Positions 15,578-63,824 of a stretch of DNA of 64,000 nucleotides are shown in pieces. The first letter of the stretch is position 1. Each line of letters opens with the position of its first letter. Under the pieces are notes generated by a model. That model worked only from the letters and a program-made list of their open reading frames with translations, did not search any database and had not been told where the DNA came from. A program made the position numbers and the translations under genes. The DNA comes from a virus, in IMG/VR virus record IMGVR_UViG_3300021090_000001, positions 1-64,000 of that record, one strand, 5' to 3'.

Positions 15578-15582
15578 AACCG

Positions 15583-15603: not shown

Positions 15604-15607
15604 GGCT

Positions 15608-22794: not shown

Positions 22795-23042
22795 ACGCAG
22801 CTCCTCGTCGCCAAGAACCTCCAATCGCCACCCCGCCAGGCGACCAAGCAGGAGACCTGCGTCCACTGGATGGTTGACACCAACGCCTCCTGCGGCGGGC
22901 GGCGATTCCAGCGCTGCGCTCATTGCGGAAAGTCCGGCTCGCGCCCGACCCGCAAAGACGAACGCGTCTCCTGATAGGGCCGAACGTCTGTCGGGCGATG
23001 CTACAGTCGCGCCGTTCTGGTCCAAGCAAGGGAAGGAGCAGT

Positions 23043-35037: not shown

Positions 35038-35507
35038 TGCCCGAGCCAGAAGTCAACAGACTTGAGAGGGCGATGCAGGGGCTGACGATCGGCATCGTCC
35101 GCGACCAGCAGGAATTTGAAGATCAGATCAGGGTCGATGGGCTCCAGGAGAAAGAGCAGCAGTTCTGGGTCGAGATCGCCGGGCGCGCCGAGGAGTTCGC
35201 CTCCTGGGCGGTCAAAGAGATCGAATTCGAGCAGCATTATGTGGACGCGACCGGGCAGCGGGACAGCCCGTTCGACCGGCCGCACTTCACCTTCGGCGGT
35301 GTGCTGGATAGCCCAACACCCGTTGCGCTTTTCGCGATGGTGATGGAATACATCGTCAACAAAAGGAACGAAACCGTGGGCGCGAAGGTTGCGATCGGCA
35401 TCTTGGCGACCGACCGATCGACCAAGGTAAAGGGGCGCGTGAACCTGACCTTCCAGGGTTATTGCCAGGCGCCGAGTGGATTCGCTGACGACATAGGAGC
35501 TGGATGA
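35037..35507 (+). CDS. Hypothetical baseplate-module protein
   Basis: 156 aa, translationally coupled (TGATG). Confidence 0.55.
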   Translation: MPEPEVNRLERAMQGLTIGIVRDQQEFEDQIRVDGLQEKEQQFWVEIAGRAEEFASWAVKEIEFEQHYVDATGQRDSPFDRPHFTFGGVLDSPTPVALFAMVMEYIVNKRNETVGAKVAIGILATDRSTKVKGRVNLTFQGYCQAPSGFADDIGAG

Positions 35508-47278: not shown

Positions 47279-47469
47279 AGGCCGAACGTCGCGCCGCCAA
47301 GAAGCTCTATGGCCGGATCGCCGATCTCTCGCCCGGTTCGACCGTCGAGGAGATCGGCAAACTCGCCGAGGCATATGCGAAAGTCCGCTGGGGCGCGCAA
47401 GGAAAGACCATCTATGACCAAAGGATCCGGCGTGAGGAGCCGCTTGAGAAAGGAACTGGCTTCGCATGA
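47275..47469 (+). CDS. Hypothetical small protein
   Basis: 64 aa, coupled starts on both sides. Confidence 0.45.
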   Translation: MKAERRAAKKLYGRIADLSPGSTVEEIGKLAEAYAKVRWGAQGKTIYDQRIRREEPLEKGTGFA

Positions 47470-48281
47470 AACCACTCGTTGTGATCCCCAGTTACATGAA
47501 GACCGGGCTTCACCTGGAAGCCCTGACTGACACCCTCGCATCGATCCTCCACACCCAGGAGCATGAGATGCCCGACATCCTTGTGGTGGACGACTACTCG
47601 CCCGACCGGGCGCTGGTCGATGCCCTGGGAAAGCTGCAAGAGGGCTCCTCCGAGAAGGACCTGCCGCCGTTCGAATTGATCCGCAAGAAGGGCAACAGCG
47701 GCTTCTCCTCGACCGTCAACTTCGGGATGCGCTTCGCCCAACAGGAAGACCGCGACGTGGTCCTGATGAACTCCGATATCGAGATGGATGTGCCCGACTG
47801 GGTCGGCAAGTGCCAGCGGACGCTGGACTCCGAGGGCCGTCCGGCCGCTGTCATCGGCGCCCTGCTGATCTACCCTCAGACCGGGCTCATCCAACACGCC
47901 GGGATCAACTTCTCCTATCTCACCCGCCGTTTTTACGAGCGCTTCAAATATGGCCCGGCCAACCTGCCCAACGCTCTCAACCGGGAAGTGCTGCCGGTCA
48001 CCGGGGCGTTTCAATACATCCGGGCGCAAACCCTAACGGATGTGGGGATTTACGATGAGCGCTTCAAACTCGGTTACGAGGACATCGACTACTGTCTCCG
48101 CGTCTTCCTTGCCGGATTGGAGTGTGTATACGAACCTGAAGTCAGAGCTTGGCATCATGAGTCGATGGTCCGGGGCGAGAAAACCGAGCAGGTCAGTCGC
48201 TGGGAGGTCGAGTCATTCGCCTCGCTGGTCGAGAAGTATCGCGGCCAATCCTTCGGCCAGTTCGTCCCTTCGGTCCTCTAG
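47466..48281 (+). CDS. Glycosyltransferase family 2
   Basis: 271 aa. VVIPSY...ILVVDDYSPD...NSGFSSTVNFG...VVLMNSDIE are GT-A/GT2 motifs. Confidence 0.85.
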   Translation: MKPLVVIPSYMKTGLHLEALTDTLASILHTQEHEMPDILVVDDYSPDRALVDALGKLQEGSSEKDLPPFELIRKKGNSGFSSTVNFGMRFAQQEDRDVVLMNSDIEMDVPDWVGKCQRTLDSEGRPAAVIGALLIYPQTGLIQHAGINFSYLTRRFYERFKYGPANLPNALNREVLPVTGAFQYIRAQTLTDVGIYDERFKLGYEDIDYCLRVFLAGLECVYEPEVRAWHHESMVRGEKTEQVSRWEVESFASLVEKYRGQSFGQFVPSVL

Positions 48282-48354
48282 CCGCAAATCGCGAAGAAAG
48301 GTTGATCATGGAGGCTACATTTCCGCCTATCGAGTTTGTAGGGTGGCCCGACAG

Positions 48355-49050
48355 ATGAACGAGCAAGCCAACGACACCGAGAGAACGCCCCGCTGGTGGG
48401 ACTACGACCAGCTCCCGAGTGGCGAGCCCTACGACTGGGGGCAGGCCGGGCGCGTCCACGAGGACGACCAGACCGATTTCCACTTGGACCTCGGCGCCGG
48501 TCGGCTGCCGAAGGGCAGGCTCTGTATCGACCGCTATGACGACGACTGCACCGACCTGATCATGGACCTCGATGAGCTTCACGTCGCCGGGGTGACCAGC
48601 GAGAAAATCAACTACGGCAAATACCCCGAGCCCGCCGCCGAACTGATCCCGATCCAGGGCCGGATGCCGTTCCCGACCGATTCGATCGAGTCGATCATCT
48701 CCCATCATGCCCTGGAGCATGTGGGCGGGGGCTTCATCCGACTCATGGACGAGTGCTACCGCATTCTCAAGCCCGGCGGCATCTTCAGGATCATCGTGCC
48801 ACTGTTCCCGTCACACTCGGCGATGGCCGATCCCGACCACAAGCGGGTGTTCCTGGAAGGCTCGTTCAAATCCTTCTGCGGTGATGGCGAGGGCAACTCC
48901 TGGCTGGAGTCGTTCTCGACCCCCTACACGATGGCGCGCTTCAAGGAAACGCACCTGGCAATCACCGAGCGCTCGCTCTACCCGAATGTGTGGTGGACCG
49001 AAGCCGACGCGCGCGAGATGCGTGTGACCTTGACCAAACCAGAAAGATGA
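48355..49050 (+). CDS. Class I SAM-dependent methyltransferase
   Basis: 231 aa from the ATG at 48355. LDLGAG, SHHALEHV, ILKPGGIF. Confidence 0.8.
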   Translation: MNEQANDTERTPRWWDYDQLPSGEPYDWGQAGRVHEDDQTDFHLDLGAGRLPKGRLCIDRYDDDCTDLIMDLDELHVAGVTSEKINYGKYPEPAAELIPIQGRMPFPTDSIESIISHHALEHVGGGFIRLMDECYRILKPGGIFRIIVPLFPSHSAMADPDHKRVFLEGSFKSFCGDGEGNSWLESFSTPYTMARFKETHLAITERSLYPNVWWTEADAREMRVTLTKPER

Positions 49051-49262
49051 GAATGCCTCCTCTAAAAAAAGGTGACGTACGTCAGGCGCTCGACAAGCGG
49101 ATCGAAGCCGCGAGACGCCGTCACAAGAAACTGGTGGACGAGGGTGAGCAGGAAGACCGCGTCGCGGTTGCCCAGGAGTCCGCGAAATTGAACGTCCTCC
49201 AGAACGTTCGCAAAGAGCTGTTTGGCGAACGGCTCCCGAAGAAGGTGGGTCCGAAAGCGTGA
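49047..49262 (+). CDS. Hypothetical small basic protein
   Basis: 71 aa, ATGA overlap. Confidence 0.45.
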   Translation: MRMPPLKKGDVRQALDKRIEAARRRHKKLVDEGEQEDRVAVAQESAKLNVLQNVRKELFGERLPKKVGPKA

Positions 49263-50041
49263 CCTCTCAAGTCCGCGAAAGCAGGTACGCATCGGTCTGT
49301 CTGCTCAGCTTCAACCGCGCGAAGCTGATCAAGCAGACGATCGAGACGGCGATCGCCAACGCTCGGTACCCATTCGAGCTGATCGTCCACGACGACGGCT
49401 CGGACATGGATACCACCGAGCTGCTGATCGACATGCACGAGAACGGGATGATTTCGCTGCTGATGCTGAACGCGCCGGGCAACAACGAGGGCCAGGGTGT
49501 TGCCCTAAACCGGATGTTCGGCTCCGCGACCGGCGACCCGATCGTGAAGATGGATCAGGACATGGCCCTCGACCCCGGCTGGTTGCAGAAGTCGGTCGAA
49601 CTGCTGGAAGCCAACGATGCCCACGCCTGGGGAGAATCGCGACTGGACCTGGAGGGCAAGCCCCGCATCGGCGCGTTGGGACTGTTCAAGTACGAACACG
49701 ACCCCGTGGACTTCCGCAAAATGCTGATTGCACACCACACCACCCAGGGCATCGAGTGGGAGGAGCATCAGGACTTCGTCGGCTCGGCGATGGTCATCCC
49801 GCGCTCCTGCTGGGAGGAATTCGGTCCGTTCGAGGAACGCAGTCCCGCCTTTGCCGAGGACGCCGTCTTCAAGCAGCGGATCGCCGGACTGCCGGGCTGG
49901 TGCTGCGCCCTCTTCCCCGATGACCTCGCCGTCAATGTCGGATTCGGGGTCGGCCCGTCCACGGTGAATGTGATGGACGGCGACAACCTGGTGGTGCAGT
50001 CGATCCATGACAAGCCGCTGCTCCTGGGTGCAGATTTCTAA
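49259..50041 (+). CDS. Glycosyltransferase family 2
   Basis: 260 aa. SVCLLSFNRAKLIKQTIETA...ELIVHDDGSDMDT. Confidence 0.8.
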   Translation: MTSQVRESRYASVCLLSFNRAKLIKQTIETAIANARYPFELIVHDDGSDMDTTELLIDMHENGMISLLMLNAPGNNEGQGVALNRMFGSATGDPIVKMDQDMALDPGWLQKSVELLEANDAHAWGESRLDLEGKPRIGALGLFKYEHDPVDFRKMLIAHHTTQGIEWEEHQDFVGSAMVIPRSCWEEFGPFEERSPAFAEDAVFKQRIAGLPGWCCALFPDDLAVNVGFGVGPSTVNVMDGDNLVVQSIHDKPLLLGADF

Positions 50042-50060
50042 GCATGGTGCCTAAGTCCTG

Positions 50061-50267
50061 ATGAGCGTTCCACGTGAAACCGCCCTGGAGCTGAGCGAGG
50101 CGATTTCCCAGGTCGAGGGCTGGGTCGGCCGGATCGAAGCGGTGGCTGAGTCGATGGCCTACTCGGTGCAGACGATGGAGCGGGCGGTCGAGAAGAACCA
50201 GCATGCCGCCAGCTCGATGCGCGACGCGGCCGCAGTGATCGACGGCGCCTCCCGGAGGATGGGCTGA
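50061..50267 (+). CDS. Hypothetical small protein
   Basis: 68 aa, helical. Confidence 0.45.
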   Translation: MSVPRETALELSEAISQVEGWVGRIEAVAESMAYSVQTMERAVEKNQHAASSMRDAAAVIDGASRRMG

Positions 50268-50464
50268 TGCACGAGTGCCCGGTCGGCGGCTGCCCGAAGC
50301 AGGTCGCCTCCCACTTGCTGATGTGCCGCCCTCATTGGCGGAAGGTGCCTCGCGACATTCAGCAACGGGTCTATACCGGCTGGCGCGAGGGCATCGAGAG
50401 CGATCTGTACGTTGAGGCCCGAGGCGAAGCGATCGCCTCCGTCGAGCTGGAGAAGGCGTCGTGA
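50267..50464 (+). CDS. Hypothetical small Cys/His protein
   Basis: 65 aa. CPVGGCPK...LMCRPHW. Confidence 0.5.
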   Translation: MHECPVGGCPKQVASHLLMCRPHWRKVPRDIQQRVYTGWREGIESDLYVEARGEAIASVELEKAS

Positions 50465-51099
50465 AGATTACCGGGGATCCCAAGGAGGGCGGCTACATCG
50501 AGAAGGCCGAGCTGGAGCTGATCGAATCGCTGCCGCAAGGCGAAATCACCGTCTTCGATGTCGGCGCCAACGTCGGCGAATTCACCCAGGCTGTGCTGGA
50601 GCGGCGCGGCGAGGCCAACGTCTTCGCGTTCGAGCCAGATGTTGATGGGCGTCGGAAGATCAGATCGTTCGCCCCGACGAGGAGGGTGCAGGTCCTCGGC
50701 GCGCTCAGCGACAAGGCCGGGCGCCGCGAGTTCTTCTCCGACTCCCCGGCCTCCCAGCTTGGAACCTTCTTTCCGCGCCCGAGCCTGCCCGAGGTCAAGA
50801 TGAACTGGACTGGCTCGCTGCTCACCAGCACTGTCACCGACATCGTCGCCGAGTATGGGCTCAACTGGATCGACTACATGAAGCTCGACTGCGAGGGCAG
50901 CGAGCTGGACATACTGCGCGGCGCGGCGGCGGTCCTCGACCGGATCGACCTGGTGAGCTGGGAGCTGCTGCGCGAGAACCGCTATACCGACGCGACGCTG
51001 GCCGACTTCACCGAGATCTTGGATGGCGAATTCGACGTGGCGCCGCTCGGCGATGCCCCCGACTCGGCGATCCTCTGGGTCGCGAGGCGGCGCGCGTGA
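50461..51099 (+). CDS. FkbM-family methyltransferase
   Basis: 212 aa. VFDVGANVGEFT...FAFEPD...MKLDCEGSELDIL. Confidence 0.8.
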   Translation: MKITGDPKEGGYIEKAELELIESLPQGEITVFDVGANVGEFTQAVLERRGEANVFAFEPDVDGRRKIRSFAPTRRVQVLGALSDKAGRREFFSDSPASQLGTFFPRPSLPEVKMNWTGSLLTSTVTDIVAEYGLNWIDYMKLDCEGSELDILRGAAAVLDRIDLVSWELLRENRYTDATLADFTEILDGEFDVAPLGDAPDSAILWVARRRA

Positions 51100-52163
51100 G
51101 GACCGGCGTCGTCATCCCGGTCGGCCCCGGTCGGCTCGAAAACCTGACGAACGTTCTGGCTTCCCTGAGCAGAATGACGGTCGAGCCCGAGGCGATCTGC
51201 CTCGTCGGCGACGGTCCCGAGGGCACCGAGGTCGCCGAGCAGGCGCTCAACGGCGCCCACCTCCTCGGCCGCGCCCCGGTTTTTGTCCATGCGCTGGACA
51301 AAAAACATGAGCCGGGGATGCGGCAGCCGCGTAACGCCGGGGTCGCAGCCCTGGAGGCCGAGGGCAACTTCAGCCATGTCTGGTTCCTCGACAGCGACGT
51401 TGTCGTCGCGCCCGACTGCCTGATGGCCTTCGAGTGGGCGAACTTCCAGAGCCCTTTCGATCGCATCCTCGTCGGGCGGTACGACTGGCTGCGCCAGGGT
51501 GTCGAGGCGCCTGAGGAGGCCGCTGATGTGATGGCCGGGGACTTCGAGATGTTTGACCCCCGCGATCGCTCCTTTGCCGCTCATGGGCCGCGAGAGACGT
51601 TCAGGGAAGACCTCAGCGCCGGGCTCGCCTGCTTCTCGGGCAACCTGGTGTGGCCGATCGCCCGCTTCAAGAGCGTCGGTGGCTTCTGGAACGAGATTCA
51701 CCACGGTCGCTGCGAGGACGGCGAGCTGGGCCTGCGGGCAGTGCGTATGGGCGTCCCGATCGCCTATGTCGGGCTCGCTCAGGGTTGGCACCAGTGGCAC
51801 GTCCGCAACGTCGCGCTGGCCCAGGAATGGAACCTTCGCGATGTGCCGATGCTCAACGAACGGCACCCCTGGCTGGAGAAGCGCTGCACCTGTGGGCACC
51901 AGGAAACCGTCCACAACGTGATCGAGAGCGAGCGCAAAGGCTCCTGCACCGAGTGCGTCGGCCAACCTTGCGCCTGCCAGGAGGAGGCGGCGCCGCCGGT
52001 CCGCCACGGTCCCTGCCGGGACTGCATGTGCCCAGCCTTCAAACAGGCGATCTTCGTGGTCGAGGAGGATGGCCGCCGGTTCGAGACGCGCTGCGGCCAA
52101 TGCGAGTGGACCGGCCACCCGGCCGAAATCTGGGCGCATGAGGCAACTCATGCCATTCGCTGA
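51096..52163 (+). CDS. GT-A-type glycosyltransferase with Cys/His-rich C-terminal extension
   Basis: 355 aa. VVIPVGPGRLENL...FLDSDVV. The last 94 aa or so contain at least 10 Cys (CTCGH, CTECVGQPCAC, CRDCMC, CGQC). Confidence 0.7.
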   Translation: MRTGVVIPVGPGRLENLTNVLASLSRMTVEPEAICLVGDGPEGTEVAEQALNGAHLLGRAPVFVHALDKKHEPGMRQPRNAGVAALEAEGNFSHVWFLDSDVVVAPDCLMAFEWANFQSPFDRILVGRYDWLRQGVEAPEEAADVMAGDFEMFDPRDRSFAAHGPRETFREDLSAGLACFSGNLVWPIARFKSVGGFWNEIHHGRCEDGELGLRAVRMGVPIAYVGLAQGWHQWHVRNVALAQEWNLRDVPMLNERHPWLEKRCTCGHQETVHNVIESERKGSCTECVGQPCACQEEAAPPVRHGPCRDCMCPAFKQAIFVVEEDGRRFETRCGQCEWTGHPAEIWAHEATHAIR

Positions 52164-52308
52164 GAAGCTGGTCAAGCTGACCAACGAGCAGATTGCGATC
52201 CTGCTCTCGATCACCGGGCCGCGCGCTGCTATGCCCGACGCCGAGAAGTACGGCGACTGGTCGGTCGATCTTCAGCGGCGCCTGGAGGAGGCCGAGGACG
52301 CCCCGTGA
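52150..52308 (+). CDS. Hypothetical small protein (start uncertain)
   Basis: 52 aa from the ATG at 52150; an alternative ATG is at 52138. Confidence 0.4.
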   Translation: MPFAEKLVKLTNEQIAILLSITGPRAAMPDAEKYGDWSVDLQRRLEEAEDAP

Positions 52309-52763
52309 TGGTGCTCTGGACTGATGGGAGCTGCCCGGAAAACCCCGGTGGCGCTGGGGGCTGGGCATTCGTCTGCGTCAAGGACGGTCAGGTCGTCGCC
52401 GAGATCAGTGGCGGCCAGTCCGTCACCACCAACAACATCATGGAGATGACGGCGGTGATTGAGGCGATCGCTTTCATGGAGCGCGAGTTTACCTTCGTCC
52501 AGCGCTTCAAAGTCATATCTGACTCGGAGTATGTGATCAAGGGGGTCAACGAGTGGATGCCCTCCTGGAAAGCGCGTCACTGGGTCAAACGCGGCGGCAT
52601 CAAGAACCTCGGGCTGTGGAAGATTCTCGACCGCTTAGTTGACCCGACCCGGATGGAGTTCGAATGGGTGCGCGGCCACGTCGGAATCATGCACAACGAA
52701 CGAGCGGACGAGCTGGCGGGAATCGCCACCGCCGCCGTCGAGAGCGGAAAGATCATCCTGTGA
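52305..52763 (+). CDS. rnhA: Ribonuclease HI
   Basis: 152 aa. LWTDGSC...GGWAF...TTNNIMEMTAVIEA...ISDSEYV...HNERADELA are RNase H catalytic DEDD-type motifs. Confidence 0.85.
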   Translation: MMVLWTDGSCPENPGGAGGWAFVCVKDGQVVAEISGGQSVTTNNIMEMTAVIEAIAFMEREFTFVQRFKVISDSEYVIKGVNEWMPSWKARHWVKRGGIKNLGLWKILDRLVDPTRMEFEWVRGHVGIMHNERADELAGIATAAVESGKIIL

Positions 52764-53797
52764 GTCTCGATCCGAGCCGCGTGCTGTTCATGGGCGTCAG
52801 CTCGACGCCGATCTGTTACTACCGATGCGCGTTGCCAGCTACGGCGCTGGGCGCCGATTGGGTGGGGGTCCACGGTGACCCGCCCGCGCTGACGATCGAG
52901 ACGGGGCTGGTGAAGCACTCCACCCAGAAACCCGTGATGCTCGGGGGCGACTACGACGTGATCGTGGTGCAGGAGGTCTACGGCGAGGGCTGGCTCAAAC
53001 TGATCGCCGACGCGCAAGAGCAGGGCATCCGGGTGATCTATGAGATCAACGACTACCTGCACGGCATTCCGAAACTGCGGGACCACCAGTACAGCCGTTT
53101 CTTCACCCCGCAGCGGTTGTCCTGGATCGAGCAGGCGATGGAAGCCGCCGACGCCGTCACCGTGACCACGAAATACCTGAAGAAGAAGTATCAGAAATTC
53201 GCGAAACGCATCTACGTGGTCCCGAACGGAATCGACCCCCGTCGATATGAACTTGATAAACCTGAACGCGCGTCGAGTGTTAACGTCGGGTGGGCGGGGG
53301 CAACGGGCCACTGGGAGGCGATCGCACCCTGGCTGATCCCGGTCGCCCACCTGATGGACGTGAACCCGAACGTTAACTTCGTCACCATCGGCCAGCCGAT
53401 CGCCGACCACTTCAAACCGCGCTTCGGCGAGCGAGCCCTGAGTGTGCCGTTCGCGGCGATCGAGCAATACCCGGCGGCGATGACCCTGCTCGATGTCGGG
53501 CTCGCCCCGGCGGCCCACACGCGCTTCCACCGAGGCAAGTCTGACCTGCGGTGGGTCGAGGCGGGCGCTCTCGGCATCCCGCTGATCGCCGACCCGACCG
53601 TCTACAACGAAATCGAGAACGGGGTGACCGGCTTCCTGGCGCCCGACGCCGACAAGGTCTTCGAGTACCTGATGTTGCTCGTCGGCAACCCGCAGCTCCG
53701 CCAGCAGGTTGGTGAGGCAGCAAGAACACACGTTCGAGAGAAACGCACCATTCAGGCGATGCTGCCGAAATGGGAACGCGCCCTCGCTGGCGAGTAG
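52760..53797 (+). CDS. Glycosyltransferase family 4 (GT-B, group 1)
   Basis: GTG at 52760 overlaps the rnhA TGA. VVPNGIDP, GKSDLRWVEAGALGIPLIA and GVTGFL are typical GT4 motifs. Confidence 0.8.
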   Translation: MSLDPSRVLFMGVSSTPICYYRCALPATALGADWVGVHGDPPALTIETGLVKHSTQKPVMLGGDYDVIVVQEVYGEGWLKLIADAQEQGIRVIYEINDYLHGIPKLRDHQYSRFFTPQRLSWIEQAMEAADAVTVTTKYLKKKYQKFAKRIYVVPNGIDPRRYELDKPERASSVNVGWAGATGHWEAIAPWLIPVAHLMDVNPNVNFVTIGQPIADHFKPRFGERALSVPFAAIEQYPAAMTLLDVGLAPAAHTRFHRGKSDLRWVEAGALGIPLIADPTVYNEIENGVTGFLAPDADKVFEYLMLLVGNPQLRQQVGEAARTHVREKRTIQAMLPKWERALAGE

Positions 53798-53826
53798 GAT
53801 CAGCGGTCTACGCCGAGCGGGTTCTC

Positions 53827-53847
53827 TGAACGTCCGTCGTAGGTTGC
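53827..53847 (+). promoter_or_regulatory. Degenerate motif copy 11 upstream of sigma gene (tGAACGtcCGTCGTAggTTgc)
   Basis: 15 of 21 positions are identical to copy 1, including GAACGnnCGTCGTA. TAGGTT fits TANNNT. The TTG start is at 53864. Confidence 0.35.
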
Positions 53848-53863
53848 TAACCTAGAGGGCAGC

Positions 53864-54505
53864 TTGGAACCCACTCAGGCTGCCGATCCGAATCTCCTAG
53901 CTCACTTCGAGGGTCTGGTGCATGCCACGAGTCGGAAGCTCAAGCTCAATTCGAACGAGAAATGGAAGCCGGTCAAGCGCTATGACGTGGAGGAACTTCA
54001 GCAAATCCTCCGGGTCAAAGTATGGAAAGCACTCCTGGCCTTCGAGCCGCAGCGGTATCCCCGTCAGCGGCGCTTGAAAGCGATGGAGAGCTATGTCTAC
54101 GGCTGTATCGCGAACGAGGTCAAGGACCTGCTCAAGCGAGACCGGGAACCTCTGCCGCTGATTGAGGACATCGCTCTGGCCGAGAGCCCGATGAGCGACC
54201 CCGAGAGTGCCAGCGATCGCTTCGAGTTCAGATACATGGGCACCGAGGACGATGCCTTCGATGAGGTCGAGCGCGATTCGGCTCCCCTTGTGCCAAACAC
54301 CCTAAGTCTTGACGAGCGTTCAGTGTTAGCTCTGAAGTACCTGGGCTACACCGGACCCGAAATGGCCGAGCGACTGGGGATGACCCGTTCGCAAGTCGCC
54401 GCCGCGATCAAGGACATTCGGGAGAAGATGGAGGACTGGCGGCCGAAGTCGGCGGTGGCTCCAACGCCACCGGAGCGGGACCTGAGCCCCGCCCCGGTGG
54501 CCTGA
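53864..54505 (+). CDS. Sigma-70-family (ECF-like) RNA polymerase sigma factor
   Basis: 213 aa. Region 2-like segment EELQQILRVKVWKAL...YVYGCIANEVKDLLKR. Region 4 HTH LDERSVLALKYLGYTGPEMAERLGMTRSQVAAAIKDIREKM. Confidence 0.8.
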   Translation: MEPTQAADPNLLAHFEGLVHATSRKLKLNSNEKWKPVKRYDVEELQQILRVKVWKALLAFEPQRYPRQRRLKAMESYVYGCIANEVKDLLKRDREPLPLIEDIALAESPMSDPESASDRFEFRYMGTEDDAFDEVERDSAPLVPNTLSLDERSVLALKYLGYTGPEMAERLGMTRSQVAAAIKDIREKMEDWRPKSAVAPTPPERDLSPAPVA

Positions 54506-54903
54506 CTAACTGGCCGGGAAGTAGCTCCGGCCTTTCTTGGTTACCCGCTTCTCCTGCTCCAGGTCGCCCAGCACCCGGTAGAGGTAGTTCGGCTTGATCT
54601 TCATCGCCTTGGCGACATCGGTAGCCGAAATGCCGGGATCTTTCTCGACGAGCCTCAGGGCCTGCTCGGCTCGGGTCGGGACGCCTTTGCGCTGGCGCCG
54701 CCGTTTCGGCGTGGCCGACGCCGAAACGGCGCCCGCTTTGCGGGGGCGGCCGGTCGAGCGCCGTGGTTTGGCAGCGGGGGCGCTGCCGTTCATCGGGAGG
54801 GCGGCGATCGAATCCAGGATCGAGGATCGCTCCTTATCGATGGTGGAGAGCCTGCCCTGGAGCAGGTCGTGCGCCTCCTGAACCTCTGGTGCGACAGTTG
54901 ACA
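54506..54903 (-). CDS. Winged-helix DNA-binding protein with basic linker
   Basis: ATG at 54903 preceded by GAAAGGAGC. The C-terminal DVAKAMKIKPNYLYRVLGDLEQEKRVTKKG is wHTH-like. Its stop abuts the sigma stop with no gap. Confidence 0.6.
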
Positions 54904-54982
54904 TCAGGTTGCTCCTTTCGAGCATTGACTCTGGGTGGGTGAGAATGTAGCACGGTCCTACAGACGTAACCGTTCGGATGTG

Positions 54983-56371
54983 CTATGGGGATGAAGTCGT
55001 CCGGGCGTAAGAATCGGCAACCGCCCTGCTGGAGAAGAAGCCCACCTTCTTCTTCTGCGGCTTCGGCTTTACCGGCAGAGACATCGCGAAGTTGGCCGTC
55101 AGGTCCGCATAGCGGAAAAGCGCCACCGTGTTCTCGGGCACGCCCTGGGTCCCCGGCGGCACGGTGTAGTCGAGTCTGGCGCAAGGACCGATTGCGAACA
55201 CGTTGCGGTTGTTTTCGCGGGCAACCTCCCGGCCGCCAACCACGACCGGATTCCCGTTAATTCTGTCTGCCTGTTCGGCGCTCCCCTGGGAGTAGCCAGC
55301 GCACCAGATCACCTTGTCGTACCTGACCCCATCGACGTAGGCGCCGTTGTAGCTGGTCGAGACGAACCGGGCTCTGCGGGCGATTGGCCTGATTCGACCG
55401 TCTGCCTGTTCGGGCCTCGCGGGCCTCGGCATGGCGCGGCCGATCCCCTTGTAGCGCGAGCGGTTGCAGCGCTCCCACCCCTCGCGGTCATGCGATTCGG
55501 GGTCTACCCCGAACCAGTCGATCCGCTCGACCCAGTCGAGGGAGGCCACGGTGTCGGTGCGCGGCGGACCCTGGCCGATCAGCGCCTCGATGACGGTGCG
55601 CCCGGAGTCACCAGCGCCCACCACGGCGACGCTGCGCATCCCCTCCAACGGAAAGGGCTTGTCGAGACTGGCGAGAAACTGGGTATAGCTCAGCAATCTC
55701 TCGCCGTCACAGTTCTCGCCCGGCGGTACCAGCGCCTCGCCGATGCCGGTTGCGTAGATCGCCCGCTCGCAATCGATCACCGTTTGGTCGGTGAGGATGA
55801 CTCGCCTGTTCTGGGCTCGGAGGACCTTGCGGCCGGTAACCACCCTTGCATTCATCGCCAGCGTGGCCCTGATCGCGAAGGCCATCTCGGTGTTGGTCTG
55901 ATACTCGTCGCCGCCGAGGTCGGCGGGCTGCACGGGCGCGAACGGGATGAAGTTCAGCGCCTCGTCTCGGCCGGGCACTCCGAGTTCTCCCGGTCGGTTG
56001 CGGCTGTTGAGGAAGAAGCTGGGCATCGTGCTGACGGCGAAGATGCCACCGGCTCTCTCACCCTCCTCGATCACCAGCGGTTTCGGGCAGCCCTGGGCCA
56101 CCCTGGCGGCGCAGTAGATGGCCGCGTGCAGGCCGCCGCCGATCACCACTTCGGGGACTTCCGATGGAACCGGCGTATTGGCCCACATCTGATCCAGCTC
56201 CGCATCGAAACGAGCCCGTGCCAGCGGATGCGTGGCGATTCCCGCCAGCTTCGCCGCGAGTGGGTTCTCGAACTCTTTGACGCGACCCATCATCGCCTCC
56301 ACGCCGCCGTTCATGGTGAGGTCGCCAGTGATCTCTCGGATCACATCGCGCACTCGTTTCGGTGGTTCCAT
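54983..56371 (-). CDS. FAD/NAD(P)-binding oxidoreductase, flavin monooxygenase-like
   Basis: 462 aa. Two dinucleotide-binding motifs, VVIGGGLHAA and VAVVGAGDSGRT. DKVIWCAGY resembles the (L/F)ATGY motif of N-hydroxylating and flavin monooxygenases. Confidence 0.7.
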   Translation of the reverse strand: MEPPKRVRDVIREITGDLTMNGGVEAMMGRVKEFENPLAAKLAGIATHPLARARFDAELDQMWANTPVPSEVPEVVIGGGLHAAIYCAARVAQGCPKPLVIEEGERAGGIFAVSTMPSFFLNSRNRPGELGVPGRDEALNFIPFAPVQPADLGGDEYQTNTEMAFAIRATLAMNARVVTGRKVLRAQNRRVILTDQTVIDCERAIYATGIGEALVPPGENCDGERLLSYTQFLASLDKPFPLEGMRSVAVVGAGDSGRTVIEALIGQGPPRTDTVASLDWVERIDWFGVDPESHDREGWERCNRSRYKGIGRAMPRPARPEQADGRIRPIARRARFVSTSYNGAYVDGVRYDKVIWCAGYSQGSAEQADRINGNPVVVGGREVARENNRNVFAIGPCARLDYTVPPGTQGVPENTVALFRYADLTANFAMSLPVKPKPQKKKVGFFSSRAVADSYARTTSSP

Positions 56372-56387
56372 GCCTGCGCCTTCCTCT

Positions 56388-56924
56388 CTAATCGTTACCG
56401 TAGCCGTACTGCTCGTTCGCGAACTTCCTCGCCCGTTTCCTGCTGTCCTCAGACGCGGCGGTTCGCCCGGTGGTCAGACCCTCTTCCCACGGCTCCTGCT
56501 GGCCCTTGTGGGTCGAGTCCTCGGTGAATTCCTCTGCCATCGCGTCATCGCTGACGATGGCTTTGCCTTCGAGCCCGATGCCGAAGTTGACCTCGGGCGG
56601 AAAGCAGAACATGTGGTACTCGTTGGCCGTGTCAGTGAGCTGGTCCTCGGGTGGGAATATCTCAGCACCCGTCCAAAGCTCTCCGCAGCACTCGTTCTTG
56701 ATCTGCTGTAGGTGGCGCCAGTTGCGCGCCGGGCTGCGGTCGTGCAGGTGAATCGAGAGCTGCTTGACCAGGTTGCCAGCCCGCCCCTCGCGGTTGTGGA
56801 CGATGCACTGGTACCGATCGTTCGTCCAGACCTCGACGTTCGGATCGTCGCGGTAACGCTCATGCAGGTCCTCGCGCTCGGCCTTGACCATCGGCTCCCA
56901 TTTGCGGATGTAGCCGCCGGGCAT
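56388..56924 (-). CDS. Hypothetical protein
   Basis: 178 aa, GC3-biased, coupled with its neighbours. Confidence 0.6.
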   Translation of the reverse strand: MPGGYIRKWEPMVKAEREDLHERYRDDPNVEVWTNDRYQCIVHNREGRAGNLVKQLSIHLHDRSPARNWRHLQQIKNECCGELWTGAEIFPPEDQLTDTANEYHMFCFPPEVNFGIGLEGKAIVSDDAMAEEFTEDSTHKGQQEPWEEGLTTGRTAASEDSRKRARKFANEQYGYGND

Positions 56925-56926
56925 GG

Positions 56927-57355
56927 TCAGTCACCGCCCTCGCTGTATTTGGAGGTCGAGAGGGGTGCGTAAAAGTCGATGGGCGTCATTGGCTCGCCAC
57001 CGTGATGCTCCAGGAACTCCTCGTTCGAGCCAAAGCAGCTCTCGGTGTCCGGGGGTCCCGTCTCGATGGTGGGGTTCTTCGGCTGCTTACTGACGTTCGC
57101 GCGGAAGATGGCCGCCCCGCGACACTGGCGCAGTTTCGGGTGATCCCACTTGCCGGTCATCTCCAGCGGGTCGGTGACGACGATGGTCTTGTGGCAGGCG
57201 ATCGGCGCTTCGCTGTGTGCGATCTTGATCCAGTCGGAAGGCAGGTAGGGACCTAGCCAGCCGGGGATGGCGGCGCGGCGCCAAGGGCAGTCGTTGCAGG
57301 GCTCCGGGGTCGCTGGCGGGAATTTGCGGGTGAGGTCGTTCGGAATCTCGGTCAT
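56927..57355 (-). CDS. CPWRR-motif Cys-rich protein (paralog of 59957..60394)
   Basis: 142 aa. CNDCPWRRAAIPGWL...IACHKT...CRGAA. Confidence 0.6.
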   Translation of the reverse strand: MTEIPNDLTRKFPPATPEPCNDCPWRRAAIPGWLGPYLPSDWIKIAHSEAPIACHKTIVVTDPLEMTGKWDHPKLRQCRGAAIFRANVSKQPKNPTIETGPPDTESCFGSNEEFLEHHGGEPMTPIDFYAPLSTSKYSEGGD

Positions 57356-57357
57356 CC

Positions 57358-57681
57358 TCAGCCCAGTCCGGGGATGCGGTCCCCGACCTCCGGGTCGATG
57401 CTGGTGATCCAGCGCTTCAACAGCTCGCTGCCGCGAATTAGCAACGTTCGTTCCCCATACTGGAGGATGATGAAGTCGGTGCCGAGCCCGGCGCCGCAGC
57501 TTACGGAGGCGTCTATCTCCTCCACGCCCACCATCTCCTGTCGTAGGCCCAGGACGATGCTCAGATCGGGGTCCTTCAGATCACGCACTGGGAGGGACAT
57601 CTCGGTGGGCTCCAGGCCAGTCGCATCAGCGGTTTTCATGCCCTTTCTGTCCTCGCCTTTTCTGGTAACGCTTGCCTTCAT
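57358..57681 (-). CDS. Hypothetical protein
   Basis: 107 aa from the ATG at 57681, preceded by AAAGGAGAG. Confidence 0.55.
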   Translation of the reverse strand: MKASVTRKGEDRKGMKTADATGLEPTEMSLPVRDLKDPDLSIVLGLRQEMVGVEEIDASVSCGAGLGTDFIILQYGERTLLIRGSELLKRWITSIDPEVGDRIPGLG

Positions 57682-58169
57682 TTCCAGCTCTCCTTTCGGT
57701 TCCTCAGCCACGCGGCCAACTCTTCGGCGAGTTGGCCGGGCAACTTCCACCCTTTCGGTGCATGGTCTTCGGGTAGGGTCTTGGCCACGTCCGCCTGCTC
57801 CATCACGCGCCATTTCTCCATCCGAAGGATGCAAAGACGGAAGCAGTCGGCGCAAAACTCCACGCCGAGGTTGAAGTCGGGGTTGTGTTCTTCGATCAGG
57901 CTGTCGTGTTTGTATCGGGAGCGAACCGTGGGCTTGTGGTTGGGATCGGCCTCCTGCTTTTCGGTACACATTCCGCTGGCTTCCAGAATCACGCGGTTGA
58001 AATCAACCGCTTCAAAGACCTCGACGAATAGTTCGCTGACAAAGTCCATGACGTTGTAGAAGTCCTGCTCGTCCAGCGCATAGGCGCCGACGATCTGGCC
58101 CATCGTGGTGTGTAGCTCGCCCGCGAACATCGGCATGACGGCTGCCTCGGCTTTATCGCGTACGGGCAT
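57678..58169 (-). CDS. Hypothetical protein
   Basis: 163 aa, lower GC, ATGA-type overlap downstream. Confidence 0.6.
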   Translation of the reverse strand: MPVRDKAEAAVMPMFAGELHTTMGQIVGAYALDEQDFYNVMDFVSELFVEVFEAVDFNRVILEASGMCTEKQEADPNHKPTVRSRYKHDSLIEEHNPDFNLGVEFCADCFRLCILRMEKWRVMEQADVAKTLPEDHAPKGWKLPGQLAEELAAWLRNRKESWK

Positions 58170-58217
58170 CAGCCTTCGCCCCTGCGAAGCCCTTGAGCGT
58201 GTATTCCCAGACTCCCA

Positions 58218-58433
58218 TCAGTCGCCCCCGGTGATCGTCAGGCCGCCTTGGGCACCGATGGTGGTCCTGCGCCTAACGCGGGCCTTCCGTTTCCAGTCGC
58301 GGGGGTCGTACTCGGTGACTCCGATCCGCGCATCGCGGAGGCCGAACCGCCGGAAAGTGACGATGCTTCCCTTGAGGCCCGCATCCTTCAGGACTTCGGC
58401 GAGCGCGAGGACCTGGCCTTTCTCAACTTTCAT
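58218..58433 (-). CDS. Hypothetical small protein
   Basis: 71 aa. ATG overlaps the recombinase TGA (ATGA). Confidence 0.5.
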   Translation of the reverse strand: MKVEKGQVLALAEVLKDAGLKGSIVTFRRFGLRDARIGVTEYDPRDWKRKARVRRRTTIGAQGGLTITGGD

Positions 58434-59455
58434 CGTTCCCTCCTGGTCAGTTGTCGGAACTTCTGTTCGTTCTGCGAGGCGGCGCGCTCGATGTCGCCAT
58501 GCTCGATTCGTGCGTAGGCCAGCGTCTGCTGGAGCGTTGCATGACCCAACAGTCGCTGCACTATCTCTAAGTCCATGCCAGAACGCAACCACAAGGTCGC
58601 GCAAGTGTGGCGGAAGCGGTGGTACTCCCAGCCGCCGAGGATCAGCGGAATCTTGCGGAAGCCGGTCTCGTACGGCGCTTTGAGGGCGACGCCGGTCGCA
58701 GTGTTCTTCCACCCGACGATCCAGGGGCGGTCGTGGACGACGCCGAGCTGACCGCGGACTTCAAGCCAGCGGTGGATCGAGTTGCGCAGCGGGTTGGTGA
58801 AGGGGACCTTGCGGAAATGGTCCTTGCCGTTTGACCGCTCGCCTCGTTGGGGCACGATGATCATGTCGTTGTCGGGGTGGATGTGATCGATCTCGGCCGT
58901 GAATATCTCGATCGACCGCAGCCCAGCTTCCAACGCGAGTCCAAAGATCGCCTCGCACTGGAGCCTCATCGCGTGATCGCCTATGCGGCGATATCGGCTC
59001 CTGCCCTCCTGGTAGCGCTGCATCCAGTGGTCGAAGCGGGGGCCGGGCGGCAGACGGGCGTTTAGAGCCTCCCAGAAGGCCCTCAGCTCCTTCGAGCTGT
59101 AGGGCTTCGGTTCGCTCTGGCCGGTCGCGCCCTTCGGGTCTTTGACGAGTTTGATCGCCATCAACTGCTCGGCGCCGACCAGGCCGTTCTCGAAGCCCCA
59201 GGTGAAGAAGGGGTTGACCATGCCGTGGCGCCAGCGGACGGTATTGACATGCAGGCCGTCGGTCAGCGCCGCGAGGTAGGCGCGCAGGTCGCCCGCATCG
59301 CATTCCTCCGGGCGGCTTTTCCCGGCGAACTCGGCCAGCCGCTCCAGCTCCTGCCGCTGCTGGCGCTGTCGCTTCTCGCTGAGCCCGTTGTAGAGCTGGT
59401 AGCCGGTATGGAAACGGCCGAGCGAGTCCGGGGTGTCGAGCGTGGCCGTGGTCAT
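58430..59455 (-). CDS. int: Tyrosine recombinase / integrase (XerC/D-like architecture)
   Basis: 341 aa. SAM-like N-terminal domain. C-terminal HRFRHTCATLWL...LLGHATLQQTLAYARI (R..HxxR..Y). Confidence 0.9.
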   Translation of the reverse strand: MTTATLDTPDSLGRFHTGYQLYNGLSEKRQRQQRQELERLAEFAGKSRPEECDAGDLRAYLAALTDGLHVNTVRWRHGMVNPFFTWGFENGLVGAEQLMAIKLVKDPKGATGQSEPKPYSSKELRAFWEALNARLPPGPRFDHWMQRYQEGRSRYRRIGDHAMRLQCEAIFGLALEAGLRSIEIFTAEIDHIHPDNDMIIVPQRGERSNGKDHFRKVPFTNPLRNSIHRWLEVRGQLGVVHDRPWIVGWKNTATGVALKAPYETGFRKIPLILGGWEYHRFRHTCATLWLRSGMDLEIVQRLLGHATLQQTLAYARIEHGDIERAASQNEQKFRQLTRRER

Positions 59456-59477
59456 CGCGATCCTCCCTTCTGAGTCG

Positions 59478-61066: not shown

Positions 61067-61638
61067 CACCCTCCTTTCTCTGGTTCGTCGGGGCGGCCTT
61101 TGTAGCCCGACCCGATGCGGTTCTTGAAGAAGCCCTGGTGAATCCGCACGTTGATTGCGTACAGCGAATGCTCGTGGGCTCGCATCTCCGGTTCCCGGCG
61201 CATGTCGTGTTCGAGCGCCCGTTTGGAGAGAGCCTTTTGGTCTTCGGCTTCGACCAGCGCATGACAGACTCCGCACGCCGCCCACGGACCTTTGCTGCCG
61301 CCCGCTGGCATTCCCATGACCTGGATTCCGTACTCGAAGTCTTTGCACGGGTGGGTCCAGACATCGCCCTCCTCCATGACGTTCGAGCAGAAGTCACAAA
61401 CCTCCTGGACGACGATGCTGGTGAAACGTTCGTGTCCACAGTGGGGGCAGACCAGCGGCGCGGGCGGCATCTTCTCGAAGTCGAACTTGGAATGGCACCC
61501 GTTGCACTCATAGATCGTGTTGCTGGCGACGCTGGGCATCAGATGTGGCTCCAAGTCTTGCGAGTGACGATGTTGGAAATGGTGGCCTGCGAGACGCCGA
61601 ACTTGGTCCTCGCTCAGCTTCGGAAGCGCCAGCCTCAC
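61066..61638 (-). CDS. Zinc-ribbon protein
   Basis: 190 aa. The GTG overlaps the upstream TGA. CNGCHS...CPHCGH...CDFC...CGVCH. Confidence 0.5.
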   Translation of the reverse strand: MRLALPKLSEDQVRRLAGHHFQHRHSQDLEPHLMPSVASNTIYECNGCHSKFDFEKMPPAPLVCPHCGHERFTSIVVQEVCDFCSNVMEEGDVWTHPCKDFEYGIQVMGMPAGGSKGPWAACGVCHALVEAEDQKALSKRALEHDMRREPEMRAHEHSLYAINVRIHQGFFKNRIGSGYKGRPDEPEKGG

Positions 61639-62789
61639 TTTTCACCCAGCAGTTCCAGCGCGCGGGCTACGCCCATCGGCGTGAGGGACCTGCCACCGCT
61701 GCCGACCTGAAGTAGTCCCTGCTTCAGCATGTAGGGCTCGACCCGCAATTGCACGGCCTTGGTGTCGCGGCTGAGCCCGATCGCGGTGGCGATCGTGTTG
61801 ATGCTGGCGCTGTAGCTGACTTCGCCGTCGCCTTTGCGCTCGCGGCGGCAGCGTGTGTAGAGGAACCGGAGCGTGCCCTGCATCTCCCGCGTCAGGCCGT
61901 CGTGCGTGGTCTGGTTCATCTCCAGGACCTCGGTGGCGATGAAGGGCGTGATGTAGTTATCCGGGGGCGCTAGCGATTCGGCGTTGCGCAGGAAGTTGTT
62001 GACGACGCGCGGCGTGAACCGGGCGGCGCCAGCGAAGAGTTCGGCGATGCCGGGCATGAGGGTGAGGCCGAGCGCAGTCGCGTTGCGTTCCGCGATAACT
62101 GCTAACTCGCGTTGAGAGTAATCCTCAAGGCGCGGGTTCAGCGGGAAGCGATCGAGGAACGGATCGGGCAGGCGGCCGGGGTCGGTGGTCGCGCCGATCA
62201 CAGTGACGGCCGGGAAGGAGACCATGCCCTCGCTGGTCATCAGCACACCGTCCTCCAGCAGGGCGAGGAAGACCTCGGGTGCGGACATCGCTTCCTTGCC
62301 GCGCCGCTCCATCACGGCCTGCATGTGAATCTCGTCAACGAACAAGATGTCGCGGTCCTCCATGACCTCGCGGAGGGCCAGCAGTGTCTCCATCGAGACG
62401 GGGGCGGCGACCTGGAACATGCGGCGACCCAGTTCGTTCGCGATGACGTTGGCGAAGGTGGTCTTGCCGGTTCCGGCCGGGCCGACCAGCAGCGCGTGAT
62501 CCAGCGCCTCGTTTCGGGTGAGGGCGGCGGTGATCACGCGCTGCATGGCGGCTTTCGCCCGGTTCTGTCCGACGACATCGGCGAACCTGGTGGGTCGCAG
62601 CCGGTTCTTGGAGCTGGTCTCCTCGCCTACTGGTTGCGGCGCGGCCTCTCGGGCTGCCTGGGCGTCGGATTCTTCCTTGCTGAGGTTGCGGAGGCGCGCG
62701 TCGATTTCGCGCTGCTCGTCCTTCAGCTCGTGCAAGCGCCGCCGCACGGCGGCAGCCTCAAATGCGTGTGGGTCAAGTCCGGTGGGCAT
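61635..62789 (-). CDS. RuvB-like AAA+ ATPase
   Basis: 384 aa. RPTRFADVVGQNRAK...LLVGPAGTGKTTFANVIA...ILFVDEIHM follows the RuvB N-terminal and Walker A/B layout. Confidence 0.75.
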   Translation of the reverse strand: MPTGLDPHAFEAAAVRRRLHELKDEQREIDARLRNLSKEESDAQAAREAAPQPVGEETSSKNRLRPTRFADVVGQNRAKAAMQRVITAALTRNEALDHALLVGPAGTGKTTFANVIANELGRRMFQVAAPVSMETLLALREVMEDRDILFVDEIHMQAVMERRGKEAMSAPEVFLALLEDGVLMTSEGMVSFPAVTVIGATTDPGRLPDPFLDRFPLNPRLEDYSQRELAVIAERNATALGLTLMPGIAELFAGAARFTPRVVNNFLRNAESLAPPDNYITPFIATEVLEMNQTTHDGLTREMQGTLRFLYTRCRRERKGDGEVSYSASINTIATAIGLSRDTKAVQLRVEPYMLKQGLLQVGSGGRSLTPMGVARALELLGEK

Positions 62790-62876: not shown

Positions 62877-63824
62877 CTACGCTTTGGGCATCAGCAACTG
62901 CTCCAGGGCGTCGTCCAGCAGGGTGACACCTGCGTTGAGGACCGAGAGCTTGGTGTCGAGCAGGCTCTGGTAGCGCTCGATGCCCTCTTTGATCCGCAGT
63001 CGCTCTGCCACGAGGTTCTTCTGGCGGTCGCCGCGAACCGGCGTGCCCGCCTTCAGGCGCTGGCTGCACTCGGCCAGGAGAGAGTCGATCTCGCCCTGCA
63101 CGTTCTCCGTGTAGTGGCGCTGGATCATCTGCTTTTCCGGCGCGTCGGCCAAGCACGGGATGATGGCCAGCTCGGCGAGCCCGGCGCCTTTGTAGAGGCC
63201 GCGCAGCACCGACTCGATCGACTCCAGCGTCCCGTGCGAAACCTTCGGGACGAAGAACACACCCTTATTCTGGATGCGCGTTGAGTGATCGGCGATCAGG
63301 GTTTCTCGGATCGCGGCGCGGACTTTGTTGCCGGGAACTTTGGTCCCGTTGGCCTCGTACTCGGCGCGGATCACGTCACCCAGTCTCCGGAGTTCTTTGT
63401 AGAGTTTCCGGTCGTCCAGGGCTTCGTGTTTAATCACGCCGTCCTTGGCGGCGAAGGTGATTCGCATCGCCTTCGGATGCTCGATCAGGCGCTGATCTTT
63501 GTCGCGAACGAGCTGCGTGATCTGGTACACGCATTCCTCGCTGGACTCCAGCACCCGATCGACCTTGATCTCATGGGTGCGGTCTTCTTCGGTTCGACGC
63601 GACTCCACCGACCGGCAGGCAGCCATGAACACGTCGGCGGGGCGGCGCTGTCTGGGGACCAGGTTTTCGTCCAGTCCCTCAGCGAGCCAGAGGCGTCGCA
63701 GTTTGGTGGCGGAAACCGGCTGGTTCGGAATTGACACCAGCGCGATGTACCCTAGGATCATTTCGGTCGTCACGTCACCGCTGGGGGTAGCGGCGACTAC
63801 GTTCTTGGCACGGCGCTTAGTCAT
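62877..63824 (-). CDS. Hypothetical protein
   Basis: 315 aa. ATG preceded by GGAATGGAGGATG. No motif recognised. Confidence 0.6.
   Translation of the reverse strand: MTKRRAKNVVAATPSGDVTTEMILGYIALVSIPNQPVSATKLRRLWLAEGLDENLVPRQRRPADVFMAACRSVESRRTEEDRTHEIKVDRVLESSEECVYQITQLVRDKDQRLIEHPKAMRITFAAKDGVIKHEALDDRKLYKELRRLGDVIRAEYEANGTKVPGNKVRAAIRETLIADHSTRIQNKGVFFVPKVSHGTLESIESVLRGLYKGAGLAELAIIPCLADAPEKQMIQRHYTENVQGEIDSLLAECSQRLKAGTPVRGDRQKNLVAERLRIKEGIERYQSLLDTKLSVLNAGVTLLDDALEQLLMPKA

Follow-up and report, generated by a model that had tools for sequence, protein, structure and literature searches.

A five-gene glycosyltransferase and methyltransferase cassette that may glycosylate the virions of an environmental phage lineage

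Sets of glycosyltransferases (GTs) and methyltransferases with which a phage builds a glycan are a known kind of system. As the work of Freeman et al. (2023) is described in PMC12363180 and PMC12619734, GT sets glycosylate the virions of mycobacteriophages Che8, Corndog, and Myrna, and the Che8-type glycans are O linked at the C termini of the capsid and tail tube subunits. Virion glycosylation is now the standard inference where GT and methyltransferase genes occur in actinobacteriophages. Here, we describe a block of 11 co-directional genes that fills positions 47466 to 53797 of a 64,000-nucleotide stretch of viral DNA (positions 1 to 64,000 of IMG/VR record IMGVR_UViG_3300021090_000001), which we refer to as the window. 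The block encodes four GTs and two methyltransferases and most likely builds a methylated glycan on virion proteins, a reading that we favor but hold tentatively, as the target cannot be read from sequence. What is new is the enzyme families, including a zinc finger GT (GTAzn) with no homolog among the 50,697 GenBank phage records searched. Also new are a five-gene cassette that is conserved in its lineage and moves between phages, and a candidate acceptor motif.

Other described systems resemble the block in part. In chlorovirus PBCV-1, the capsid glycan machinery includes A064R, with two rhamnosyltransferase domains and a methyltransferase, and A111/114R (PMC7826918). Phage DNA can also be glycosylated; the described pathways need a hydroxylated base made by a thymidylate synthase homolog or a TET/JBP dioxygenase, usually encoded nearby. 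Known DNA sugar clusters include the alpha- and beta-GTs of T4, the MT/5mYOX/GT clusters (Pyle et al., bioRxiv 10.1101/2023.12.21.572611), and 5hoC arabinosylation (PMC13326640). Finally, the GTs of GX15bay, a phage from a mangrove soil virome, were read in 2019 as auxiliary genes of carbon cycling (PMC6460857).

We compared the block with 14 related metagenomic loci, 13 from IMG/VR and one from Logan. Five genes recur at 37 to 55% identity and form the core module: GT2a (in 10 of the loci, at 38 to 54%), the methyltransferase MT11 (in 9, at 40 to 52%), GT2b (in 13, at 42 to 54%), GTAzn, and GT4 (in 9, at 37 to 51%). In seven loci, the whole neighborhood is syntenic, running from an exonuclease and DnaB through the module to an extracytoplasmic function (ECF)-type sigma factor and then a convergent integrase block. 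The sigma factor is kept after GT4 in L003 to L006, L008, and L019. Six other loci, with G+C contents of 46 to 70%, have only the module genes in common with this window. Since the module genes are all that these otherwise dissimilar phages share with it, the module moves between them. The conservation of the core genes, and their being all that distant phages have in common with this window, indicates a single functional unit that is under selection and spreads as a cassette.

Around this fixed core, the relatives carry a changing set of further sugar genes. Open reading frames (ORFs) in or near their modules encode nine more GT2 proteins, another GT-A-like family undetected by Pfam, four NAD-dependent enzymes resembling epimerases or GDP-mannose-4,6-dehydratase (the 6-deoxyhexose type), and three to four Methyltransf_24/CmcI-type (rhamnosyl) O-methyltransferases. 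A fixed core with swappable tailoring and deoxysugar genes suggests a pathway for a defined but diversifying methylated oligosaccharide, and we expect that the module makes such a variable product. The sequence-only reading had already credited the block with enough enzymology for a methylated oligosaccharide, and the additional genes of the relatives strengthen that view. The module of L005 also holds, just before GT4, a short ORF resembling a C5 cytosine DNA methylase (L005:14069-14797; PF00145, 4e-5), with FxGxG, PC, and ENV motifs.

Two other genes of the block are not part of this core. The sequence-only reading had listed RNase HI in the block beside the glycan enzymes, and we rejected it as a pathway gene because its position is variable or the gene is missing in the relatives: L005 and L007 have it before GT2a, L006 has it after GTAzn, and L019 has it between GT2a and GT4, while L003, L004, and L008 lack it. 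The FkbM methyltransferase, counted earlier as a member of the set, is better described as an accessory of this genome, as its sole tblastn match among the relatives is in L006, at 27% identity. Outside these loci, a near-identity search of the block against the 50,697 GenBank phages gave no match, and tblastn of GT2a, GT2b, and MT11 against GenBank phages gave weak, scattered matches only.

GTAzn is the signature gene of the module. It scores 19 to 21 bits with Pfam Glycos_transf_2, under the cut-off of 23.3 bits, but its family profile matches the chondroitin polymerase K4CP (3e-6) and the prophage enzyme TarP (6h1j; 2e-5). Its AlphaFold model has a GT-A fold with a predicted local distance difference test score of 80.6, and Foldseek ranks K4CP first (1e-12), followed by the nucleoside GT AvpGT, human ppGalNAc-T2, and TarS. 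A DxD motif (D99xD101), the motif HGRCEDGELG, and the residues C333, C336, and H348 are invariant in 27 sequences. The C terminus is modeled as a beta-beta-alpha zinc finger of C2H2-like type, so that the "zinc-rich tail" described earlier is real. An extra Cys/His-rich insert is present here and in 11 of 26 aligned relatives. GTAzn has 408 homologs, all metagenomic, and 25 among 120 listed lie on contigs of 70 to 92 kb. We found no homolog by tblastn against the GenBank phage records and no prophage copy in 185,579 species-representative genomes.

The other gene identities proposed for the block were borne out by Pfam and NCBIfam (Table 1). GT2a and GT2b belong to family GT2, scoring well above the Glycos_transf_2 cut-off, and the last gene is a GT4 enzyme of the GT-B fold by both its N- and C-terminal domains (cut-offs, 28.5 bits for PF13439 and 25 bits for PF13524). 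The FkbM assignment is above the cut-off in both databases (cut-offs, 22.7 bits for PF05050 and 37.7 bits for TIGR01444). RNase HI is above the PF00075 cut-off of 25.8 bits, while its PRK00203 score falls under the 160-bit equivalog cut-off. MT11 is presumed to be a sugar O-methyltransferase from its class I S-adenosylmethionine (SAM)-dependent domain. Individual GTs retrieved only generic GT2 and GT4 relatives among PDB sequences and only generic GT-A proteins in a viral fold library, and the weak NCBIfam matches were to exopolysaccharide and teichuronic acid enzymes. The best matches of GT4 are GTs of Arthrobacter phage Mimi and Streptomyces phage Zuko, at 25 to 29% identity. The GTs and methyltransferases of the module are all acidic (pI 4.5 to 6.6) and lack transmembrane segments; no module protein has a hydrophobic 19-residue Kyte-Doolittle window above 1.2.

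The genes are tightly packed, as the sequence-only reading had described for this coupled block with four interspersed small ORFs. Eight of the 10 internal junctions overlap by 1 to 14 nucleotides (nt), the remaining two being gaps of 73 and 19 nt, and all four small ORFs agree with independent gene calls on the source contig. The term "island," however, does not fit. The G+C content of the block is 0.605 to 0.675, compared with about 0.63 elsewhere, and the block is a conserved module of the lineage rather than a variable insertion; we therefore rejected a horizontally acquired island, since the composition is not atypical. The remark that four GTs plus two methyltransferases are unusually elaborate depends on the comparison made, as some relatives of the module hold more GTs and the GX15bay cluster has seven GTs plus a methyltransferase.

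Table 1. Genes and other features of the window discussed in the text, in order of position
Feature	Position	Strand	Description	Evidence
Ig-like head-region protein	14897-15577	+	Big_3-like; paralog at 14157-14870	weak PF13750 match
Candidate glycan acceptor	18695-19357	+	gene directly after capsid gene	C-terminal GxRx3EEV(A/G)TPEA
GT2a	47466-48281	+	soluble GT-A (GT2) glycosyltransferase, core	PF00535 Glycos_transf_2 4e-13, 50 bits; pI 5.1
MT11	48355-49050	+	class I SAM-dependent methyltransferase, core	PF08241 Methyltransf_11 2e-7; phrog_6636 6e-11
Small basic ORF, 71 residues	49047-49262	+	4-nt overlap with each neighbor	pI 10.3
GT2b	49259-50041	+	soluble GT-A (GT2) glycosyltransferase, core	PF00535 3e-19, 69.8 bits; K4CP 3.6e-9
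Small ORF, 68 residues	50061-50267	+		no credible family match in Pfam
Small Cys/His-containing ORF, 65 residues	50267-50464	+		phage family phrog_18063 5e-11
FkbM	50461-51099	+	FkbM-family methyltransferase, accessory	PF05050 6e-11, 43.1 bits; TIGR01444 3e-19, 70.1 bits
GTAzn	51096-52163	+	GT-A with C-terminal beta-beta-alpha zinc finger, signature gene	family profile, AlphaFold model, Foldseek
Small ORF, 52 residues	52150-52308	+		gene call on source contig
RNase HI	52305-52763	+	replication gene	PF00075 6e-33, 114 bits; PRK00203 6e-39, 133 bits
GT4	52760-53797	+	GT-B glycosyltransferase, core	PF13439 5e-9, 37 bits; PF13524 3e-7, 30.8 bits; phrog_7162 4e-33
ECF-type sigma factor	53864-54505	+	final gene of rightward arm	TIGR02937 5e-13
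Terminator-like hairpin	54512-54532	+	seven-pair stem, 6 G-C pairs, then T-rich tail	consensus match only

The closest parallel in kind is Che8, where gp108 is a GT2 fused to a TylF-type/Methyltransf_24 O-methyltransferase, gp109 is GT2-like, and gp110 is a GT25. In both systems, soluble GT-A enzymes are combined with a SAM-dependent O-methyltransferase function (here MT11 and FkbM), and the genes stand apart from those for structural proteins, where the rightward arm ends. Both phages are siphovirus-like and high in G+C, and for the present one there are hints of a host among actinobacteria. The glycans of Che8 are at protein C termini, and the candidate acceptor here has a conserved C-terminal Thr-Pro. 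The differences are that Che8 uses three genes, whereas this module has five core genes including a GT-B enzyme (GT4) and a zinc finger GT-A. The Che8 capsid and tail tube proteins end in ...TGS and ...DGS, unlike the corresponding ends here, and this system is known from sequence alone. A tblastn search of all block proteins against Che8 50000-59471 gave nothing better than E=0.008 and no match to genes 108 to 110. The PBCV-1 machinery offers a second likeness, in that virus-encoded, cytoplasmic enzymes assemble a methylated, deoxyhexose-containing oligosaccharide stepwise on the capsid protein (PMC7826918), and the relatives of the present module carry rhamnosyl-O-methyltransferase-like and deoxyhexose synthesis genes. 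PBCV-1 is, however, a eukaryotic giant virus with multidomain fusions and N-linked glycans, and the comparison is by fold class only.

If virion proteins are the target, the two GT2 enzymes, the zinc finger GT-A, and GT4, soluble in the cytoplasm, would build the oligosaccharide stepwise from host nucleotide sugars, and the core class I methyltransferase, here joined by FkbM, would O-methylate sugars of the chain. The glycan would be attached to one or more virion proteins in the cytoplasm, late in infection, before particles assemble or as they do so, and the result would be a sugar-coated particle, as with Che8, Corndog, and Myrna. GTAzn may be the enzyme that recognizes the acceptor, as it is the signature gene of the lineage, has the only extra domain, and is one of the enzymes with a fold like that of polypeptide GalNAc-transferases. 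The best candidate for its substrate would be the conserved Thr of EEV(A/G)TPEA in the 18695 protein. RNase HI and the small ORFs would be bystanders. The acceptor, the order of the reactions, and the biological benefit are what we infer in this scheme.

The 18695 protein consists of a folded N-terminal domain (80 residues, confidently modeled), a nonconserved acidic Pro/Ala-rich linker, a conserved helix, and the C-terminal motif. Its family comprises 62 homologs (P0124 to P0185) on the same long contigs as the GTAzn homologs. The motif GxRx3EEV(A/G)TPEA is present in 59 of the 62, lying in most cases 4 to 8 residues before the C terminus; each of the nine loci fetched (L021 to L029) has it, and within the window it occurs once, in this protein. 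Conservation of T214 and P215 is at least 90% or complete. A Thr-Pro kept in this way at the end of a disordered tail, in a protein whose gene adjoins that of the capsid, is a reasonable candidate for an O-glycosylation site. The protein had been named as a candidate acceptor for its Pro/Glu/Thr-rich stretch, which is not conserved, and its candidacy gains support from the Thr-Pro motif instead. Some family members have two copies of the motif, and a few have a C-terminal extension past it. The N-terminal domain gave no meaningful fold or sequence match. We rejected an ending in ...GS common to the Che8 capsid, the Che8 tail tube, and the 18695 protein as a signal: it would arise by chance in about one of six genomes of such size and is not conserved in the family.

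A second acceptor lead comes from the Ig-like protein at 14897-15577, whose gene, like that of its paralog, is flanked by the portal and protease/scaffold genes. Along its full length, it has 55% identity to L009:16302-16994, although L009 is a phage of 46% G+C that beyond the module and this protein has no match to any window protein at E<1e-6. Fold and sequence searches with the Ig-like protein and the 16986 ORF gave no meaningful match.

The observations on GTAzn and the motif can also be combined into a more specific proposal, one that we consider speculative and rather unlikely to hold as a whole. It would be a two-part system of sequon-directed virion O-glycosylation, in which the mobile five-gene cassette uses GTAzn to read GxRx3EEV(A/G)TPEA, held out by a capsid-associated protein on a long disordered acidic linker, giving a glycan-tipped head fiber whose glycan is varied by swapped methyltransferases, GTs, and deoxysugar genes.

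Several points weigh against virion proteins as the target. The C-terminal motif could equally be a signal for capsid binding or for processing. No obvious C-terminal Ser/Thr tail is present on the capsid and tail tube proteins, which the sequence-only reading had listed among the candidate acceptors. The resemblance to Che8 gp108 to gp110 is one of kind, not of homology, as there is no BLAST-level similarity. The hints at a host are indirect, with relatives that range from 46 to 70% G+C, and about 14 kb of the genome lies outside the scans. The remaining points concern DNA. The module lies among replication and recombination genes in both of the contexts seen (DnaB and RNase H here; Pol III alpha, RecA, and RusA in L009), and replication genes are the typical neighborhood of DNA-modifying GTs. 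The zinc finger of GTAzn could equally bind nucleic acid, and there is the C5 DNA methylase-like ORF in the L005 module.

These last points lead to the rival reading in which a hydroxylated base of the phage DNA receives a methylated sugar or sugar chain from the GTs, guarding the DNA against host nucleases, as happens in T-even phages and in the metagenomic clusters that glycosylate 5hmC or 5hoC. DNA hypermodification clusters likewise combine GT-A and GT-B enzymes, sometimes several in series, among replication genes, and the two contexts of the module are unrelated. Both GT folds act on DNA, and DNA-acting GT-A enzymes resemble TarP, which the GTAzn profile matches. What the known clusters have and this genome appears to lack is an enzyme that provides the acceptor hydroxyl: in the window ORFs scanned and the precomputed Pfam annotation of the flanks, about 74 of 87.8 kb, we found no thymidylate synthase homolog, TET/JBP dioxygenase, or C5 methylase domain, a negative that divergent enzymes could escape. 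Among the module ORFs of the relatives (25 of 39 families listed), there was none either, except for the one methylase in 1 of 14 loci. The absence of such an enzyme lowers this reading without removing it. Of the phage GT contigs that are related to DNA GTs, about 65% likewise have no base-modifying enzyme nearby. The acidic pI of all module enzymes also speaks against DNA, as do the O-methyltransferases and deoxyhexose synthesis genes, which do not feature in the DNA sugar pathways described; sugar methylation is no part of them. The sugar genes of the relatives represent the chemistry of methylated deoxyhexose glycans on proteins and envelopes, unlike the sugars reported so far on DNA. On balance, we consider DNA an unlikely target, though the leading alternative to virion glycosylation.

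Somewhat less probable again is that the enzymes alter a host cell wall glycopolymer or glycolipid during infection or lysogeny, blocking superinfection or the adsorption of progeny to lysed cells, as TarP and Gtr systems do. The phage may be temperate, with a tyrosine recombinase (58430-59455) 4.6 kb from the module, and phage-borne soluble GT-A enzymes such as the prophage-encoded TarP of Staphylococcus aureus act on wall teichoic acid. GTAzn itself has TarS and TarP among its matches by structure and sequence, and the weak NCBIfam matches to exopolysaccharide and teichuronic acid enzymes fit as well. However, TarP and GtrABC are single enzymes or membrane-bound three-gene sets from prophages, whereas this module has five soluble core enzymes and no membrane component. 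No GtrA/GtrB/GtrC-type membrane protein is encoded in it, and the only match to such a system is a weak one of the N terminus of GT2b to a GtrB-like phrog family (3e-6). The module ends a long rightward arm with overlapping frames instead of forming a moron next to the integrase with transcription of its own; prophage copies of GTAzn are lacking in the species-representative genomes, and the module is kept in every lineage member seen, which is unusual for lysogenic conversion cargo. Least probable, and to our mind quite improbable, is that the enzymes reprogram the carbohydrate metabolism of the host or have a small molecule as their acceptor. Such a role would follow the reported auxiliary role of the GX15bay GTs, and AvpGT, one of the folds closest to GTAzn, is a nucleoside GT. 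A fixed set of four GTs and a methyltransferase that is long conserved and mobile as a cassette is a better fit to one defined glycan than to general metabolism, and no catabolic carbohydrate-active enzymes lie beside the module in the window. The three candidate targets named by the sequence-only reading, virion proteins, host glycans, and DNA, are the right ones, and virion glycosylation is the one we favor, although sequence does not choose among them.

GX15bay (Caudovirales; MK557849, L030) is the closest GenBank relative by virion genes, with 32 to 35% identity for the terminase, 31% for the portal, 27% for the capsid, and 30% for the tail tube. It has eight annotated GTs and one methyltransferase, with seven of the GTs clustered at 7105-18249, directly upstream of the terminase. 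These GTs are not BLAST-detectable homologs of those in the window, and the cluster location differs. One GX15bay gene annotated as an epimerase (33831-35048) encodes a protein 30% identical to the presumed tail tube protein here and is probably misannotated. The GX15bay protein encoded after the capsid ends in ...GVGRPVTPT.

The phage genome is about 87.8 kb and was assembled independently at 87,834 bp (ENA ERZ27267809) and 87,820 bp (JGI). A window position w corresponds to 110197-w on ENA contig k141_2036348, and for w<22363 (window 1-22362), this exceeds the 87,834 bp of the contig; hence, the window must derive from an assembly of this genome with another permutation, suggesting that the genome is complete and circularly permuted or terminally redundant. 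It encodes a tailed phage, with an intein-bearing terminase, portal, capsid, tail tube, and 1,632-residue tape measure protein, and it has no near relative among the GenBank phage records; the capsid and tail genes are common to GX15bay at 27 to 35% protein identity. Exact lookups of two structural proteins gave no record, probably due to differing start codons; a single-sequence capsid query against IMG/VR and an exact 50-mer search in JGI metagenomes for the remaining ~14 kb of the genome gave no match.

Several features hint weakly at a host in Actinomycetota: a 6.1-kb contig with a homolog of the 18695 protein is binned in an Actinomycetota metagenome-assembled genome, the G+C content is 63%, a VG64-family protein is present, the terminase intein resembles mycobacteriophage helicase inteins, and the best matches of GT4 are in Arthrobacter and Streptomyces phages. 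The VG64-family protein (22923-23441 [+]; 172 residues; PF25682 [Mycobacterium phage VG64], 5e-51) has a lipoprotein-like N terminus. Its identity to proteins of mycobacteriophages, of which some carry the annotation recombination directionality factor, is 72 to 76%, far above that of any other gene of this phage to cultured phages. The large terminase (6359-9109 [+]; 916 residues) contains an intein-like insert at about residues 89 to 437 with LAGLIDADG and homing endonuclease domains (PF14528, 2e-9; PF05204, 1e-5). It shares ~38% identity with inserts that mycobacteriophages carry in "DNA helicase" genes, and it accounts for spurious PHROG matches of the terminase to primase and helicase loader families.

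The arm beyond the module is encoded on the opposite strand, and the terminator-like hairpin sits where the two gene blocks converge. Facing the module end are a 462-residue FAD/NAD(P)-binding oxidoreductase (Pyr_redox_2; 54983-56371 [-]) and a DUF7694 protein (56388-56924 [-]). Both genes were found in none of the related loci and look like strain-specific cargo, and we rejected the flavoprotein as a hydroxylase partner on this ground. The leftward arm (window 61635-62789 [-] and L002 7216-9988, the latter past the right end of the window) encodes a MoxR-type AAA+ ATPase and then a 519-residue protein, a DUF6744 protein, and an AAA+ protein resembling RuvB, and the RuvB-like gene is kept in the core lineage at 46 to 53% identity. 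Two small reverse-strand ORFs with good coding signal (21857-22183 [-] and 22513-22761 [-]) lie inside the rightward head-tail block and are possible morons. ARAGORN called a tRNA-Trp (25212-25290) and a tRNA-Tyr (63155-63237), which are probably false positives, as they lie within two well-supported coding regions, the presumed tail tube gene and the DUF6744 gene.

If the virions are glycosylated as we propose, particle glycosylation would extend past a few cultured actinobacteriophages to a widespread environmental lineage that uses different enzymes. A compact five-gene cassette with a short candidate acceptor peptide could perhaps be reused to glyco-engineer phage particles, whose glycans influence how antibodies recognize them in phage therapy. 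Were DNA the target instead, the module would represent sugar hypermodification without the known acceptor-generating enzymes, which would be more surprising. Either way, an auxiliary role in carbon cycling should not be the default reading of GT clusters in viromes from soil and mangroves.

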